Shown one piece after another: positions 3,166 through 59,836 of a DNA stretch of 64,000 nt (position 1 is the first letter of the stretch; every line of letters starts with the position of its first letter). This stretch comes from an uncultured Clostridia bacterium (GTDB taxonomy: Bacteria; Bacillota; Clostridia; Oscillospirales; Butyricicoccaceae), in contig CAJUJQ010000001.1 in the NCBI GenBank assembly GCA_910586575.1, positions 11,947 through 75,946 on the forward strand, given 5' to 3'. The translations under genes and the position numbers were made by a program. The notes beneath the pieces are model-generated. The model saw only the letters and a program-made list of their open reading frames with translations. It was not told the origin of the DNA and ran no database searches.

Positions 3166-4002
3166 TTATTGATCCGGGCTGGTCTGTGCCGCGTCAGCTG
3201 CCGGGGTACCGCCTTCCCGTTGGGTATAATACTGCTCCACACTGCTGCCAAGCCCATCCAGCAGATTCCTGCCGGTGATGATAATCTCGACGCGGCGGTT
3301 ATGGCTGCGCCCTTCCTCGGATGTGTTGCTGTCCACCGGGCGGTGCTGGCCGAAGCCCTCGCTCAGGATACGGTCGCCGCCGATTTTACTGTGCGTCTGC
3401 ACAAAGACGGTCGCAATCGTCGCGCGGTTGGAGGACAGCCGCCGGTCGTTCCGCACATTATTCGGACGGCTCGGGTCAGCCTGCGCGGTATGGCCCATAA
3501 TGCGGATTTCATCGATGGAATCCGCCGCCTGATCAAACAGCGCACAGATATCGGTCAGGATCTGCTGCCCCTGCGGCAGCAGGTCATAGCGCTCCCCGGC
3601 GAAAAACACGGCGTCATCAAAAGAAATGAACACATAGCCGTCACCGCGGGTGGTTTCAATCCGCGCGCCCTGCTGGTTGTTCTGTGCATACTCAACCAAC
3701 GCCTGGTACAGTTGTTCGATGACATTATCAATTTGCTGCTGTTCCGTCGCAAGGCTTTCGTCAACCTTTTCCACGCTCATGCCCACATGGGCCTCGATGG
3801 CGGGACCCTGGCTGCCCGTCAGCTCGACCTGCACCGGTTCGGCGTCCGGGTTAAAGCTCTTGACCAGCGCCATCCATTTATTTTCATCAACGCTTGACAT
3901 GGAATACAGCAGTACGAAAAAACACAGCAGCAAGGTCACCATATCGCCGTAGGTATCCATCCAATTCGCGCCGCCGCCGCTGCTTTTCTCCCTTTTTTTC
4001 AT
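3166..4002 (-). CDS. MotB-like flagellar stator protein (OmpA/MotB C-terminal domain); no motA partner in window
   Basis: 278 aa. Single N-terminal TM with the conserved plug/Asp region (WMDTYGDMVTLLLCFFVLLYS). C-terminal OmpA-like peptidoglycan-binding motif (IMGHTA...NDRRLSSNRA...NRRVEIII). Confidence 0.75.
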   Translation of the reverse strand: MKKREKSSGGGANWMDTYGDMVTLLLCFFVLLYSMSSVDENKWMALVKSFNPDAEPVQVELTGSQGPAIEAHVGMSVEKVDESLATEQQQIDNVIEQLYQALVEYAQNNQQGARIETTRGDGYVFISFDDAVFFAGERYDLLPQGQQILTDICALFDQAADSIDEIRIMGHTAQADPSRPNNVRNDRRLSSNRATIATVFVQTHSKIGGDRILSEGFGQHRPVDSNTSEEGRSHNRRVEIIITGRNLLDGLGSSVEQYYTQREGGTPAADAAQTSPDQ

Positions 4003-55413: not shown

Positions 55414-55646
55414 ATAACGCCGCATTTCATAATATTGGCAGGGGAGTAGCTTGACCCTCCCGCTGCTTAGGAACCGGCGCCGTTTTCAACCACAAGCAGC
55501 CGGGCACATCAAAAAAGCCGCCTCCCGCGAAGCTCACAAGAACCCCGCTGAAAGCAGCCTTTTTGAAAAACAAAAGGAAGAAAGTTCAAAAACAATCTTA
55601 GAAGGGAAAAACAAAAGAGGAAAAAGGGAATGTGTGTGGTGTACAG

Positions 55647-56153
55647 TCAGCGATAGCCGTCGGCCCAAAGCGGTGTGCTGGCCGCCAAGGACTTCTGTAC
55701 ATCCAGCACACGCTGGTTGGCGCTTCCGCGGAAGCGAAGCGCCAGGCTCTTCTGAGCCAGCTCGAACCGGCCGTCAACCACCAGGTCAAGCAGTGCAAGC
55801 AACGCCCGCATTTCTTCGCTGCCCTGAAGCAGCTCTTCAAAGGCATAGCCGGTGAAAGCCATCAGGTGTTTGCCATCCGCCTTCAAAGCCTGTGCCAGCG
55901 GCAGCAGTGCCCCGGCCTGTGCAAATGGCTCGCCGCCCGAAAAGGTCACGCCCGATACCAGCGGATTCCGCCGGATGTCTGCCAGCAGCGTCCCGATTCC
56001 GACCTCATGCCCCCCAGCAAAGTCGTGTGTCTCGGGGTTCTGGCAGCCCGGACAGTGGTGCGGGCAGCCCTGTGTGAAAATAACATATCGGATACCCGGC
56101 CCGTCAACAATCGATTCCCCGACTGTCCCTGCCAGGCGCAGTGCCTGTCCCAT
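55647..56153 (-). CDS. nrdG: Anaerobic ribonucleoside-triphosphate reductase activating protein (radical SAM)
   Basis: 168 aa. SIVDGPGIRYVIFTQGCPHHCPGCQNPETH ... VTFSGGEP. Confidence 0.9.
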   Translation of the reverse strand: MGQALRLAGTVGESIVDGPGIRYVIFTQGCPHHCPGCQNPETHDFAGGHEVGIGTLLADIRRNPLVSGVTFSGGEPFAQAGALLPLAQALKADGKHLMAFTGYAFEELLQGSEEMRALLALLDLVVDGRFELAQKSLALRFRGSANQRVLDVQKSLAASTPLWADGYR

Positions 56154-56155
56154 GC

Positions 56156-56350
56156 TTACGCGCTCTGGCTGTCAGACATGGAGCAGCAGGAGACGTTATG
56201 CTTGACGCGGTCGCGCTCCTCGGCGCGTTTGCCGTCGTTGAAGCGGTCGAGCGTGCCGACCAGATAGCCGGTGATGCGGCGGATGCGCTCAAAGCCGACG
56301 CCCTCGCCAATCAATTCGGTATCCATTTCGGTTACATGATTATCTTTCAT
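56156..56350 (-). CDS. Stand-alone glycyl-radical domain of class III RNR (C-terminal NrdD fragment, 64 aa)
   Basis: FERIRRITGYLVGTLDRFNDGKRAEERDRVKH matches the canonical NrdD C-terminus (RRxxGYL...FNxGKxxE..RVKH). Own SD AAAAAGGAG-N9-ATG. Lies between the nrdD large ORF and nrdG. Confidence 0.8.
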   Translation of the reverse strand: MKDNHVTEMDTELIGEGVGFERIRRITGYLVGTLDRFNDGKRAEERDRVKHNVSCCSMSDSQSA

Positions 56351-56417
56351 AATGGCATTCTCCTTTTTATCCGTCTCCCATGGGACAGCAAATATGTATT
56401 TCTATGATAAAACCTGT

Positions 56418-58736
56418 TTAGACCTTGTTCGGGTGACGGTCCTTTTCCTCAAAGGGGTCACCGTGGTAACCGATGGTGCCTGCATTCAGGTTTTTATACA
56501 GGCCCAGTTTTTTCAGCTTGGCGATGCTGACGCCCTCACCCTCACGGCGGCCGCAGCGCGGGCAGACGTCGCCGATAATGCCGGTATACCCGCAGACCGG
56601 GTCACGATCCACCGGATGGTTAATCGAGCCGTAGCCGACGCCGCATTCCTTCATGTAGCGCACCACCTGCTCGAAAGCTTCCAGGTTCTGCGTCGGGTCG
56701 CCGTCCAGCTCGATATAGCTGATGTGCCCGCCGTTGGTCAGCTCGTGATACGGCGCTTCCAGCCGGATTTTCTCAAACGCGGAAATCGGGAAGTACACCG
56801 GGATATGGAACGAGTTGGTGTAATAATCCCGGTCTGTCACGCCTTCCAGAATGCCGTACTTTTCCTTATCCAGCCGTACGAAGCGTCCGGACAGCCCCTC
56901 CGCCGGGGTCGCAATGACTGAAAAATTGAGTTTGTGCTTTTGGCTCTCCTCATCCATGCGATCGCGCATGTGCTTGACGATCTCCAGGCCGAGGTTCTGG
57001 GCCTCCGGGCTTTCGCCATGGTGCCTGCCGGTCAGCGCTTTCAGGCATTCGGCAAGGCCGATAAAGCCCACTGTCAGCGTGCCGTGCCTGAGCACGTCGC
57101 CGACCTTGTCGTCCGGGCCAAGCTTTTCCGAGTCAATCCAGATGCCCTCCCCCATCAGGAAGGGGTAATTGCGCACCTTTTTGTCCGCCTGGATGGCGAA
57201 GCGCGCCAGCAGCTGGTCGATAACCAGGTCAAGCTTCCGGTCGAGGTCCTCAAAGAAGAAATCAATGTCCCCATGGCTGCGGATGGCAATCCTTGGGAGA
57301 TTGATGGAGGTAAAACTTAAATTGCCGCGCCCCGTGACGATCTCCCGGGTGGGGTCATAGGCATTGCCTATGACGCGGGTGCGGCAGCCCATATAGGCGC
57401 ATTCGGTTTCCGGATGGCCGGGGCGGTAATATTTCAAGTTAAACGGCGCGTCCAAGAACGAGAAGTTCGGGAACAGGCGCTTTGCCGAAACGCGGCAGGC
57501 CAGCTTGAACAGGTCGTAATTGGGGTCGCCGGGATTATAGTTAACGCCTTCCTTCACCTTGAAGATGTGGATCGGGAAGATCGAGGTTTCGCCGTTGCCC
57601 AGGCCCTCCTCGGTCGCGATGAGCACGCATTCGGTGACCATGCGCCCTTCGGGGGTCGTATCGGTGCCGTAGTTGATGGAGGTAAACGGCACCTGCGCAC
57701 CGGCGCGGGAGTGCATGGTATTCAGGTTATGTACCAGCGCCTCCATGGCCTGGTGGGTTGCGTGGTATGTCTCGCGGACAGTGTGCTTCCGGGTGAACGC
57801 GGCGATTTTTTTTGCGGGCGCGGAATCATACTGCTCCGCAAGTAGGCGGACAATTTCCGCGTCAAAGCCGTTGGCATCCGACAGGCAGGGCCAGGAGCCG
57901 AGCGCCTCCTCTGCCCGGCAGGCCAGCTGGCGGCCGGTTTCCAAGCCGTCCTCCCGTTCGCAGTAGATTTCGATTGCCTTGCCGAGGTTGTCCCGGTAAA
58001 GCGAGCGGAAGGTCTTGGCGACGCCGGGTGCCAGCGAATAGTCAAAGTTCGGGACCGACTGCCCGCCGTGCTGGTCGTTCTGGTTGGACTGCATCGCGAT
58101 GCACGCCAGCGCGGAATACGAGCGGATGTCGTTCGGCTCACGGACGTGCCCGTGGCCGGTAGAGAACCCGCCGTGGAACAGCTTGACGAGGTCAATCTGG
58201 CAGCAGGTCGTTGTCAGCGTCAGGAAATCCAGGTCGTGGATATGGATATCGCCCTCACGGTGGGCTTTGGAGAATTTCGGGTCCAGGATGAACATCTCGC
58301 AGAACTGCTTCGCGCCCTCGGAACCGTACTTGAGCATGGTGCCCATGGCAGTGTCGCCGTCGATATTGGCGTTCTCTCTTTTGATGTCGTTTTCCAGCGA
58401 GGACTGGAAGGTTAAATCCTCATAAACCTTCATCAGACGGGTGTTCATCTCGCGGGTGCGGGTGCGCTCGTTGCGGTAAAGGATGTACTTCTTTGCCGTG
58501 CGCGCGTGCCCGTTTTCAATCAAGGTCTTTTCCACTACATCTTGTACATGCTCGACCGTCGGCGTCGTGGTTTCGGGGTCGGCATCGAGCGTTTCCCGCA
58601 CCAGCTCCGCGAGGTGACGCGCCATCTGGTAGTCCCGCCCGCCGGTGGCCTGCGCCGCGCGGAAGATCGCGCTTGCAATTTTTTCAATTTCAAAGGGGAC
58701 GCTTCTGCCGTCTCTTTTAATAATTCCGTCAACCAT
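56418..58736 (-). CDS. nrdD: Anaerobic ribonucleoside-triphosphate reductase NrdD, large fragment (ATP-cone + barrel + Zn ribbon; lacks canonical glycyl-radical tail)
   Basis: 772 aa. ATP-cone (IIKRDGRSVPFEIEKI...KKYILYR), the class III core and the Zn ribbon PVCGYTGIIGDVCPRCG. It terminates 36 codons later. Confidence 0.9.
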   Translation of the reverse strand: MVDGIIKRDGRSVPFEIEKIASAIFRAAQATGGRDYQMARHLAELVRETLDADPETTTPTVEHVQDVVEKTLIENGHARTAKKYILYRNERTRTREMNTRLMKVYEDLTFQSSLENDIKRENANIDGDTAMGTMLKYGSEGAKQFCEMFILDPKFSKAHREGDIHIHDLDFLTLTTTCCQIDLVKLFHGGFSTGHGHVREPNDIRSYSALACIAMQSNQNDQHGGQSVPNFDYSLAPGVAKTFRSLYRDNLGKAIEIYCEREDGLETGRQLACRAEEALGSWPCLSDANGFDAEIVRLLAEQYDSAPAKKIAAFTRKHTVRETYHATHQAMEALVHNLNTMHSRAGAQVPFTSINYGTDTTPEGRMVTECVLIATEEGLGNGETSIFPIHIFKVKEGVNYNPGDPNYDLFKLACRVSAKRLFPNFSFLDAPFNLKYYRPGHPETECAYMGCRTRVIGNAYDPTREIVTGRGNLSFTSINLPRIAIRSHGDIDFFFEDLDRKLDLVIDQLLARFAIQADKKVRNYPFLMGEGIWIDSEKLGPDDKVGDVLRHGTLTVGFIGLAECLKALTGRHHGESPEAQNLGLEIVKHMRDRMDEESQKHKLNFSVIATPAEGLSGRFVRLDKEKYGILEGVTDRDYYTNSFHIPVYFPISAFEKIRLEAPYHELTNGGHISYIELDGDPTQNLEAFEQVVRYMKECGVGYGSINHPVDRDPVCGYTGIIGDVCPRCGRREGEGVSIAKLKKLGLYKNLNAGTIGYHGDPFEEKDRHPNKV

Positions 58737-58806
58737 TCAGGATGTCGCCTCCGTGGGGATATTACTCATTGTATACCAGGTGTAGGGAGCCTTGTGTTCC
58801 GGCGGC

Positions 58807-58822
58807 TCACTATATCTTGTGC
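58807..58822. promoter_or_regulatory. NrdR-box-like palindrome 1
   Basis: TCACTATATCTTGTGC matches about 13/16 positions of the acaCwAtATaTwGtgt consensus. It lies just downstream of the nrdD -10 element. Confidence 0.55.
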
Positions 58823-58833
58823 CGGTGATTCTC

Positions 58834-58861
58834 ATTATACCACATTCCTTCGTACTGTCAA
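58834..58861 (-). promoter_or_regulatory. Candidate sigma-A promoter of nrdD (extended -10)
   Basis: Minus strand reads TTGACA (58856-58861), 16 nt spacer, TATAAT (58834-58839), with a TGG extended -10 (TGGTATAAT). Confidence 0.6.
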
Positions 58862-58932
58862 GTGGGAAAATGCATTTTTCCGCAAATCAGGGAAATTTTC
58901 CGGGTCGAGATTTTTTGACATTTTGATAACTC

Positions 58933-59014
58933 TGTGGATAACCTGTTGACAGCCTGTGGAATCCCTTCCCGGTGTGGACAGAACTGGGGATAAGGTGTGA
59001 ATGCCTGTGGACAG
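58933..59014 (+). promoter_or_regulatory. DnaA-box-like cluster upstream of nrdD (1 perfect + 4 degenerate)
   Basis: TGTGGATAA at 58933-58941 (perfect). TGGGGATAA at 58985-58993 (1 mismatch). TGTGGACAG at 58973-58981 and 59006-59014 (2 mismatches). TGTGGAATC at 58955-58963 (3 mismatches). All in the same orientation. Confidence 0.45.
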
Positions 59015-59114
59015 GCCGCGCGCGGGAAATTTTGCGCGGCAGCTGAAAAATTTCCCGCAGCGGCGGGCGCGTGCCCGGTGTGTCCCGCCGCCGTCCGCAC
59101 TGCCAGGGCTGGCA

Positions 59115-59130
59115 ACACTATATCTTGTGG
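59115..59130. promoter_or_regulatory. NrdR-box-like palindrome 2
   Basis: ACACTATATCTTGTGG matches about 14/16 of the consensus. It shares an identical 14-nt core (CACTATATCTTGTG) with box 1, 308 bp away. Confidence 0.5.
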
Positions 59131-59244
59131 TGGCCCTGCGGGCGCTGATTACGTCCGGTTTTCCCGCGCAGCCGGGCAAACACGCCCTTAACGCCAAGCG
59201 CACAGCTTCTAAAACCGTTCCCTTATAACACTTGCTTTCAAGGC

Positions 59245-59272
59245 AAAGAAAAGCCAGCCCTCTCAGGCTGGC
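59245..59272 (-). terminator. Intrinsic terminator after the ycxB-like gene
   Basis: GCCAGCC-N6-GGCTGGC stem. On the minus strand it is followed by TTTTCTTTG. Confidence 0.55.
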
Positions 59273-59299
59273 GAATAAACACAGGCTGCCGCCCTCCGC

Positions 59300-59836
59300 T
59301 CAAAGGACGGTTAATTTCCCCTCCCCCAGGCGCGCCCCGAGGTAAGCCCACAGGGCGTCCCCGTTCGGCTTCGCATCCTTGAGGGGCAAAATGAGCGCGC
59401 TGCCCGGCGCGACGTACAAATACACCGCCTCATCCGCGCGGTATGCCTGCTCGGCGGCCTCCCAGCGGAAGCGCTGGTCCACCGCGCCTTTCGCGGCCAT
59501 GACGATGCCGTCCGGCGCGTCGCTGAGCAGCACGGTATAAAACAGGCGCGGCTTGTCCAGCTTGAGCTTTTTCTGCTGCGTGCGCACCGTCTTAAAGAAC
59601 ATGCCAAAATACGCCATCGGAAGCCCCAGCCCGATCACCAGCAGCACCACCCCCAGCAGGTCGGCCTGCTTCCGGATGCCGCGCATCGCGAAGCACAGCA
59701 GCGAAAACACCAGGAACGCCGCCGCAAATTGCAGCGGCCTTTTCCAGATTTTCCGATACCGGAAATTGTCAAACATCGCGAAATCGCGGAAGGTTTTGTC
59801 GTCCATCATCACATCAATTTTCATGGTTTGCTGCAC
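59300..59836 (-). CDS. YcxB-like membrane protein
   Basis: 178 aa with two central TM helices and a C-terminal bPH-like part. FRDFAMFDNFRYRK... resembles the YcxB family as I recall it. Confidence 0.5.
   Translation of the reverse strand: MQQTMKIDVMMDDKTFRDFAMFDNFRYRKIWKRPLQFAAAFLVFSLLCFAMRGIRKQADLLGVVLLVIGLGLPMAYFGMFFKTVRTQQKKLKLDKPRLFYTVLLSDAPDGIVMAAKGAVDQRFRWEAAEQAYRADEAVYLYVAPGSALILPLKDAKPNGDALWAYLGARLGEGKLTVL

Follow-up and report, generated by a model that had tools for sequence, protein, structure and literature searches.

We analysed a 64,000-nucleotide (nt) stretch of DNA from an uncultured Clostridia bacterium (contig CAJUJQ010000001.1; hereafter the window), in which nrdD, the gene for the class III (anaerobic) ribonucleotide reductase (RNR), is divided between two open reading frames (ORFs). 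Locus coordinates are positions in the window, and the genes lie on its minus strand (Table 1). The features are consistent with one operon that runs from a predicted promoter through nrdD-large, nrdD-small and nrdG, the gene for the radical S-adenosylmethionine (SAM) activase, to a predicted terminator. The 772-amino-acid (aa) product of nrdD-large ends ...CPRCGRREGEGV-SIAKLKKLGLYKNLNAGTIGYHGDPFEEKDRHPNKV*, with 36 residues between CPRCGRREGEGV and the stop. Its predicted mass is 88 kDa, and that of the 64-aa small protein is 7 kDa. The sequence confirmed what the original prediction had said of the gene order: a 772-aa NrdD with ATP-cone, catalytic core and Zn ribbon that stops 36 codons later, a 67-nt gap with a Shine-Dalgarno (SD) sequence nine nucleotides ahead of an ATG, the 64-aa ORF, and nrdG 2 nt further on.

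The small ORF starts MKDNHVTEMDTELIGEGVGFERIRRITGYLVGTLDRFNDGKRAEERDRVKH... (full sequence, MKDNHVTEMDTELIGEGVGFERIRRITGYLVGTLDRFNDGKRAEERDRVKHNVSCCSMSDSQSA). It opens with a variable head (aa 1-14), followed by GEGV (aa 15-18; 56308-56297), the radical loop RRITG28YL and then the helix LDRFNDGKRAEERDRVKH, and closes with a C-terminus that contains Cys and evolves fast; the codon for Gly28 is at 56269-56267. We found a sigma-70-type candidate promoter ~98 nt 5' of the nrdD start, together with a palindrome in the nrdD leader that resembles the NrdR-box consensus and is a candidate NrdR box. The two elements suggest that the split operon is under normal RNR-type regulation. A consensus scan of the coding (minus) strand of the 67-nt gap found no promoter-like or terminator-like sites.

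Table 1. Features of the split nrdD operon in the window
Feature	Position	Strand	Basis or remark
Promoter-like site, sigma-70 type, TTGACA-16-TATAAT with TG extension (TTGACA-16-TGgTATAAT)	58834..58861	-	Consensus scan, 12/12 matches
Palindrome CACAAGATATAGTG in the nrdD 5' leader	58808..58821	-	Read from the sequence
nrdD-large, 772 aa: ATP-cone, alpha/beta-barrel core and Zn ribbon, without a glycyl-radical motif	56418..58736	-	
GEGV codons, aa 733-736, end of the canonical part of the large subunit	56529..56540	-	Upstream repeat copy
Putative pseudo-glycyl-radical-domain tail, aa 737-772, SIAKLKKLGLYKNLNAGTIGYHGDPFEEKDRHPNKV; Leu at the radical-Gly position	56421..56528	-	Profile comparison
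Spacer, 67 nt, between nrdD-large and the small ORF	56351..56417	-	Holds AAGGAG (56365-56360), 9 nt, then ATG
nrdD-small, 64-aa predicted glycyl-radical subunit	56156..56350	-	Profile matches
nrdG, 168 aa, radical-SAM activase, CPHHCPGC cluster motif	55647..56153	-	Starts 2 nt past the small-ORF stop
Terminator-like hairpin then T-run, 3' of nrdG	55522..55542	-	Consensus scan, predicted

The two polypeptides and the place of the break

We compared both products with protein family profiles. nrdD-large matched the Pfam ATP-cone (E 7e-22) and Pfam NRDD (PF13597; E 1e-192), the latter over profile positions 1-531 of 562, and the small ORF matched NRDD over positions 533-562 of 562 (E 7e-8). Against NCBIfam NF005497, the large ORF covered positions 2-715 of 746 with 1095 bits (cut-off 764) and the small ORF covered positions 711-745. 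The two NF005497 matches overlap by five positions because GEGV is duplicated. The assignment of the 64-aa ORF to the NrdD glycyl-radical C-terminus, first made from the letters alone, is upheld by both profiles. Among the small-ORF Pfam matches at E up to 0.1, PF01228 (Gly_radical, the pyruvate formate-lyase (PFL) type) was absent and NRDD was the only family. The nrdG product matched TIGR02491 NrdG (E 5e-40; 137 bits, cut-off 126) as well as Pfam Fer4_12 and Radical_SAM, and its CX3CX2C motif reads CPHHCPGC in translation.

The nearest solved structure for nrdD-large was Prevotella copri NrdD (PcNrdD; 8P23, E 3e-181), with an alignment that extends to the CPKCG Zn motif (chain residue 706). 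C451 of the large subunit (AYMGCRTRV) aligns with PcNrdD Cys416 (chain residue 420) and is invariant in the alignments of relatives, and HPVDRDPVCGY...CPRCG aligns with the PcNrdD Zn motif, a predicted Zn site. The alignments suggest that Cys451 is the thiyl-radical cysteine on the finger loop and has been retained in the large subunit. The small-ORF profile aligns to PcNrdD chain residues 708-738, and Gly28 therefore corresponds to the radical Gly711 (numbering of PMC11226230). The radical glycine motif RxxGY thus lies on the separate 64-aa ORF (RRITG28Y) and not on the core polypeptide; tail position 10 of the large subunit in the window is Leu, with no radical Gly. From the profile and structure alignments together, the break falls inside the glycyl-radical domain (GRD), after the Zn site and before the buried Gly loop. 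The profile searches fix its position to a residue or two.

Distribution of the split operon and of the small gene

We observed the exact 64-aa protein in 254 blocks of the assembly collection. The identical gene order (772, 64 and 168 aa) was present in six independent assemblies (three NCBI metagenome-assembled genomes (MAGs) plus ENA metagenomes). The best 120 small-ORF homologues were all standalone proteins of 53-73 aa (69-98% identity), and the best 120 large-ORF homologues were all 772-795 aa long. A library of representatives at 50% identity held 2060 small-ORF matches, 737 of them at E ≤ 1e-10, and nearly all of the best 150 were 54-196 aa.

The original prediction had proposed searching related genomes for the split. 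In a species-level scan (one genome per species, at least 597 matching genomes), we read the architecture of the best 80 loci: 70 were split in the same way, six were fused and four had the small gene away from any nrdD. Neither the large subunits of the 70 split loci nor that of the window carried RxxGY in a GRD context. Among the split genomes are the cultured isolates Succinivibrio dextrinosolvens DSM 3072, Acutalibacter caecimuris and Scatolibacter rhodanostii, and large homologues of split length (772-777 aa) also occur in Butyricicoccus pullicaecorum and Hydrogenoanaerobacterium saccharovorans. The record labels are Oscillospiraceae, Lachnospiraceae, 'Bacilli' MAGs, Succinivibrionaceae, Muribaculaceae, Desulfovibrionaceae and others. 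Split operons besides those of Clostridia were seen in records labelled Fibrobacter, Desulfovibrio/Mailhella, Succinivibrionaceae, Muribaculaceae and Spirochaetaceae (L004, L012, L018, L019, L022, L029, L032, L034, L039, L046). This wide spread of labels would be explained either by horizontal movement of the operon between anaerobes of the gut and rumen or by errors in MAG binning.

Across the split loci, the small gene had an SD sequence and a start codon 5' of GEGV in 69 of 70 cases. Its head was variable (6-30 codons), and 1-298 nt (median 38) separated it from the large gene. Relative to the large ORF, the three frames of the small ORF were used 24, 23 and 22 times, which rules out read-through, a fixed frameshift and a conserved bypass as general mechanisms. 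nrdG followed the small gene on the same strand in 61 of the 70 loci, and overlapped or abutted it in more than half of those. The six fused relatives (L047, L058, L062, L066, L071, L076) read ...CGRREGSEGIGFERIRR... at the junction (CGRxEGxEGIGFERIRR).

We then compared substitutions between genera, where synonymous sites were saturated (proportion of synonymous differences, pS, 0.26-1.0). The nonsynonymous proportion (pN) was 0.00-0.10 in the small core, 0.07-0.32 in the large tail and 0.07-0.16 in the large catalytic core. The nonsynonymous to synonymous rate ratio (dN/dS) was about 0.1-0.3 in the tail where measurable, and 0.4-1.3 in the C-terminus of the small ORF in most pairs. In a 25-sequence alignment, 29 of the 64 small-protein positions were invariant, including G15, E16, G17 and F20-L34 (FERIRRITGYLVGTL). 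These data indicate that the small ORF and the large tail are both under purifying selection.

Relatives of the small ORF were also encoded in at least 568 stretches of IMG/VR, of which we analysed the best 80 loci (L087-L166) and checked the phage setting for several. Small ORFs without an NrdD Zn motif upstream made up 72 of the 80; two loci were split operons and three were fused. One of the 72 has nrdD-large ~2 kb upstream, and tblastn found no NrdD-large or NrdG within ±3.5 kb of the rest. The viral small ORFs had a median length of 57 aa, and their neighbours in L088, L094 and L141 include terminase genes and a DNA methyltransferase. The order in L088 is DNA methyltransferase, replication initiator, RusA, the mini-gene (3501-3644), then the small and large terminase subunits; a terminase large subunit lies downstream of the mini-gene in L094 (3501-3689) and L141 (3501-3656). 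PHROGs has no family for the mini-protein, whose only match is to the final 33 positions of the NrdD family phrog_487. Among GenBank phages the mini-gene appeared only in nine unannotated faecal fragments, with no annotated or cultured phage as precedent. By analogy with T4 Y06I for PFL, the viral mini-gene looks like an overlooked phage auxiliary gene. Its presence alone on phage-like contigs suggests that the supply of small subunit matters, and fits a subunit that acts in trans.

Three orphan GRD genes were found at cellular sites with no nrdD or nrdG within ~4 kb (L023:3967-4138, L039:3934-4147, L075:1503-1704). The orphan of L039 adjoins DUF5131 and ParB genes and is prophage-like in setting. 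That of L075 adjoins an iron-containing alcohol dehydrogenase (Fe-ADH) gene and a ThiF gene. Such orphan copies, like those on phage-like contigs, would indirectly fit a small protein that is active in trans.

Origin of the direct repeat and the tail

The original prediction described the DNA between the two GEGV stretches as a 232-bp insertion flanked by a 12-bp direct repeat. We confirmed the repeat: copies GGTGAGGGCGTC (56540-56529) and GGCGAGGGCGTC (56308-56297) lie 232 nt apart and are identical at 11 of 12 positions, or at 13 of 15 when extended, and both code for GEGV. The segment was likewise more AT-rich, as had been stated (GC 0.41 at 56300-56450, compared to 0.54-0.68 in the flanks). 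It is made up of 108 nt of large-subunit tail, the 67-nt spacer and 57 nt that cover the codons of the small-subunit head and GEGV (aa 1-18) and one base of the codon after them. So short a repeat could arise by chance; it is meaningful because GEGV is kept in both pieces in ~70 other genomes. Alignments of relatives show no variation at G733 and E734 and almost none at G735 and V736.

The large tail (GEGV-SIAKLKKLGLYKNLNAGTIGYHGDPFEEKDRHPN) and the small subunit (GEGV-GFERIRRITGYLVGTLDRFN-DGKRAEERDRVKH) can be aligned from GEGV onward. Pairwise Smith-Waterman scores of tail against GRD were marginal once GEGV was left out (z 0.1-3.7), and profiles with a shuffle control were therefore needed. 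An hhalign comparison of 16 tails with the small-ORF cores gave a probability of 88% (E 3e-6), collinear over 37 columns, with GEGV included, and E 8e-4 over 30 columns with GEGV excluded. In the column-shuffle control without GEGV, the observed score was 16.9 compared to 6.76±1.59 for the shuffles (maximum 12.8), and 0 of 300 shuffles reached the observed value. MAFFT, unprompted, placed 17 standalone small proteins on large-subunit residues 733-767 and not on a near-identical small ORF that had been appended; in that alignment G733, E763 and R767 were invariant, and E734, G735, V736, Y747 and E764 nearly so. This placement is an unplanned and independent indication of homology between the tail and the small protein.

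Tails in the window's clade have Leu or Val where the radical Gly would be. In four tails (L018, L072, L073, L077) we observed xGY, with K or N as its first residue, in register with the radical T-G-Y (as in VLKKLKGYSK). These may be less decayed intermediates, or conceivably the tail is still an activase substrate there.

Tails fell into types: a long pseudo-GRD as in the window (type A), ...ELRKxYPxMPxFxGIE (type B), and short, Cys-rich tails (types C and D). The types were homologous in register over the first 9-11 residues after GEGV (B-A, 14.8; C-A, 20.3; C-B, 14.5; 100 shuffles each, 0/100 reaching the observed score), which suggests one origin. The retained stub reads GEGV-x-[LIV]-E-[KR]-[LIV]-x-x-L. 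Split large subunits always keep at least 11 residues after GEGV, and the stub therefore reaches the position of the radical Gly.

These comparisons suggest that the tail is a decayed paralogue of the glycyl-radical C-terminus. The direct repeat would then mark where both copies begin, a stretch conserved by selection on the protein, rather than a recent duplication of a target site. We consider it most likely that the split began as an ancient partial tandem duplication of the nrdD 3' end from GEGV onward. Copy 1 would have lost the radical motif and gained a stop, and copy 2 would have gained an SD sequence and a start codon. The insertion proposed in the original prediction does not hold up, since its first 108 nt are a conserved tail, in all likelihood descended from the GRD, and GEGV is kept across many genera.

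We also considered a break caused by a mobile element (intron, intein or homing endonuclease), and rejected it: there was no Rfam match, the 67-nt gap contains no ORF, and the 'insert' is homologous to the downstream GRD. The Rfam scan of 55600-59300 at E up to 10 returned no intron or RNA family, barring one chance match to a long non-coding RNA, and folding of the junction RNA gave z -1.5 with no notable structure. No further copies of the spacer were found in the window, so the spacer is not a repeated mobile element.

Pairs of Cys residues occur repeatedly at the very C-terminal ends, either of the small subunit (VSCCS..., CDCS, CSLC) or of short large tails (NCCK, CDC, GCICTG). They were seen in the window (56159-56197; small subunit aa 52-64) and in the tails of L010, L016, L019, L022, L029, L033, L045, L046, L069 and L074. 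They resemble the C-terminal Cys pairs that re-reduce class I and class II RNRs.

A candidate two-subunit reductase and its alternatives

Overall, our data suggest that the window encodes a naturally two-subunit, obligate class III RNR whose radical cofactor is supplied in trans, a reading to which we assign a probability of about 0.75. A functional two-piece enzyme was one of the two readings offered in the original prediction, and it fits the comparative data (conservation, selection and the small gene's own SD sequence). The spare-part logic of GrcA/YfiD, which had been invoked with it, is an apt analogy. It needs correction in one respect: the large subunit lacks the radical glycine motif, and the small protein would therefore be obligatory and not a back-up. 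In the mechanism we propose, NrdG would install the radical on Gly28 of the small protein, whose Gly loop would enter the large-subunit barrel beside Cys451. The retained stub of the large subunit would serve as the docking or recognition element for the small subunit. Oxygen would then destroy only the cheap 7-kDa small subunit, which would be replaced, and a possible further benefit would be that allosteric inhibition releases the cofactor.

Studies of related enzymes bear on this mechanism. The GRD of P. copri NrdD is highly mobile and is invisible in the dATP-inhibited state (PMC11226230), which makes a detachable Gly loop physically plausible. In the PFL system, YfiD duplicates the strand that oxygen-cleaved PFL retains; removal of PFL residues 696-733 abolishes YfiD binding, such that the stub is needed for rescue, and the disordered N-terminus of YfiD is also required for binding (PMC8683613). 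Docking on the NrdD stub, as proposed here, would mirror the role of PFL 696-733 in YfiD binding. By the same analogy, the large subunit resembles a genetically 'pre-cleaved' NrdD.

Several points weigh against a two-subunit enzyme of single origin. In a neighbour-joining tree of large-subunit catalytic cores, the six fused relatives are interleaved with split clades, and a single origin then needs re-fusions or a rooting error. Deletions between the GEGV repeats that re-fused the gene, several fissions that occurred independently, or mis-rooting could each explain the interleaving. Type B and type C tails, compared alone with the GRD, had no significant similarity to it, and their derivation from the GRD thus runs by transitivity. 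AlphaFold2 with large and small as one chain (15 alignment rows, ≥76% identity) returned an unusable model (predicted local distance difference test, pLDDT, 52.6; predicted template modelling score, pTM, 0.42). Taxon labels are those of MAG bins, some possibly wrong. The genome counts concern nrdD loci and not whole-genome RNR sets, which might include another RNR or a second intact nrdD. We infer the biochemical function of the split enzyme from conservation, and the data do not separate an adaptive 'replaceable cartridge' benefit from neutral gene fission.

Neutral fission would mean that the Gly loop binds the barrel tightly enough on its own, with the tail a slowly decaying remnant that has no docking role, and with no advantage in replaceability. 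We consider this unlikely, although other RNRs tolerate fission, as in NrdJa/NrdJb (PMC9669993) and Aeh1 NrdA-a/NrdA-b (PMC3045599), tails vary greatly in length and sequence between clades, and those of types B and C have no detectable GRD similarity. Purifying selection nevertheless acts on the tail (dN/dS about 0.1-0.3 where measurable), all types conserve the opening 9-11 residues in register, and no tail has fewer than 11. The split also persists in records labelled as several phyla, and the phage-like contigs with the small gene alone suggest that supply matters.

Two further alternatives would do away with a two-piece enzyme altogether. A single fused NrdD could be produced by bypass between the GEGV codons, programmed frameshifting, RNA splicing or protein ligation; the repeats, 232 nt apart, are matched like take-off and landing sites, and deletion of the segment restores a canonical protein like the fused relatives (junction ...CGRREGEGVGFER...). 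We regard such recoding or splicing as highly improbable given the variable gap and the equal use of three frames, the SD sequence and start codon of nearly all small genes, the conservation of tail and head as protein, and the small genes that stand alone in phage-like contigs and at orphan chromosomal sites. The missing intron match and the unremarkable junction fold also speak against it. A recently inactivated nrdD, which the original prediction gave as its other reading, or a sequencing or assembly error would explain the stop that is premature relative to canonical NrdD and the AT-richer junction. Neither is credible to us: the same architecture is present in the six independent assemblies, the small protein in the 254 collection blocks, and the same split in ~70 species-level genomes that include isolates. 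Strong purifying selection acts on both pieces, and the operon is intact, with nrdG and a predicted consensus promoter.

We compared the two-subunit NrdD with known systems. GrcA/YfiD of E. coli and Y06I of phage T4 are likewise small standalone proteins that copy the C-terminal part of a glycyl radical enzyme (GRE), its radical loop and helix. By analogy, activation by the cognate radical-SAM activase and insertion in trans are presumably shared. GrcA/YfiD duplicates the strand that its partner retains and has a variable N-terminus; here GEGV and a 9-11-residue segment occur in both pieces, and the head is variable. As Y06I is the phage version of the PFL part, so phage-like contigs encode the small gene here (PMC8683613). 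The differences are that GrcA/YfiD is of the PFL type and ~127 aa long, whereas the proteins described here are of the NrdD type and 44-73 aa, and that GrcA/YfiD is a back-up for a partner with its own radical domain. Here the partner has no radical glycine, and the small gene lies between nrdD and nrdG. According to a 2026 review, spare parts are known for no GRE class other than formate lyases (PMC13450708), and a 2021 paper raised the possibility of such parts in other GREs (PMC8683613).

Other RNRs are known in pieces. The split class II NrdJa/NrdJb (in Pseudomonas aeruginosa and Thermus phage phiYS40, for example) also consists of two consecutive ORFs, with the C-terminal module on the second, and is conserved in a subclade (PMC9669993, PMC3653736). 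It differs in that its detached module comprises IscU-like and Zn-finger domains instead of a radical cofactor, with no pseudo-copy reported on the first piece. NrdA-a/NrdA-b of Aeromonas phage Aeh1 is a functional class I RNR in pieces, and the new C- and N-terminal tails created at its break are required for assembly (PMC3045599); a docking function for the tail and head of the split NrdD would thus have a precedent. In Aeh1 the gap holds the homing endonuclease mobE and the break is known from a single phage, whereas here the 67-nt gap has no ORF, the split is found in at least 70 species-level genomes, and the new tail appears to be a degenerate copy of the piece that lies downstream. Interrupted nrdD genes of phages (the T4 group I intron I-TevII, nrdD-a/b of Lactococcus phage 949, the intein of Clostridium phage c-st, and Aeromonas phage phiAS4; PMC3653736) are introns, inteins or unexplained recent fragmentations located elsewhere in the gene, whereas the break here is position-specific, conserved and apparently ancient. 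With canonical NrdD (P. copri 8P23, T4 1H7A, E. coli), the ATP-cone, barrel, Cys loop, Zn site, Gly loop and C-terminal helix are all alignable; canonical NrdD is one chain, whereas here a second polypeptide bears the Gly loop and helix, and the first carries what looks like a non-functional paralogue of them. We found no description of a split NrdD radical subunit in the open-access literature that we searched, including RNR reviews and phylogenies.

Oxygen irreversibly cleaves GREs at the radical glycine, and only PFL has a known replaceable radical module (PMC8683613; PMC13450708). The operon and its relatives offer a natural, conserved module of the NrdD type for the question, already raised in the field, of whether other GREs have a replaceable radical part, and cultured isolates with the split operon, such as S. 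dextrinosolvens DSM 3072, make that question directly testable. If the small protein acts as proposed, it would be the first autonomous glycyl-radical cofactor outside PFL and the first that is an essential rather than a repair part. A broader proposal is that this obligate two-component class III RNR is widespread, with an exchangeable glycyl-radical protein of ~5-8 kDa and a pseudo-radical-domain stub as its docking site, and that (pro)phages of gut anaerobes carry the small gene alone as a 'radical cartridge' that drives host deoxynucleoside triphosphate synthesis. We judge the chances of this whole picture to be evenly balanced. In gut viromes, the copies on phage-like contigs hint at an auxiliary metabolic gene that has gone unrecognised. 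A peptide of ~40-70 aa would be a minimal NrdG substrate, and the two pieces would form a natural complementation system for following the entry of the radical domain into the barrel and its exit. The split also bears on annotation, where the large subunit is labelled a complete NrdD and the small protein is labelled hypothetical or 'anaerobic ribonucleoside-triphosphate reductase'. Surveys that require the C-terminal Gly motif would score carriers of the split as without an active class III RNR.

In addition, we observed a second family of small proteins (~94-137 aa) with a distinct N-terminal domain of ~50 aa (...VDG[DE][YF]VD...) that is joined directly to PFERIRRITGYL...RVKH, without GEGV. 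Members are L017:3806-4219, the GRD-containing ORFs of L149 (match at 3501-3638) and L161 (match at 3501-3683), and the proteins P0386 and P0329. The architecture recalls that of GrcA, in which an N-terminal domain is followed by a GRD. The family is encoded away from nrdD, and the L017 copy lies between ftsH and a ribosome-hibernation-like gene.

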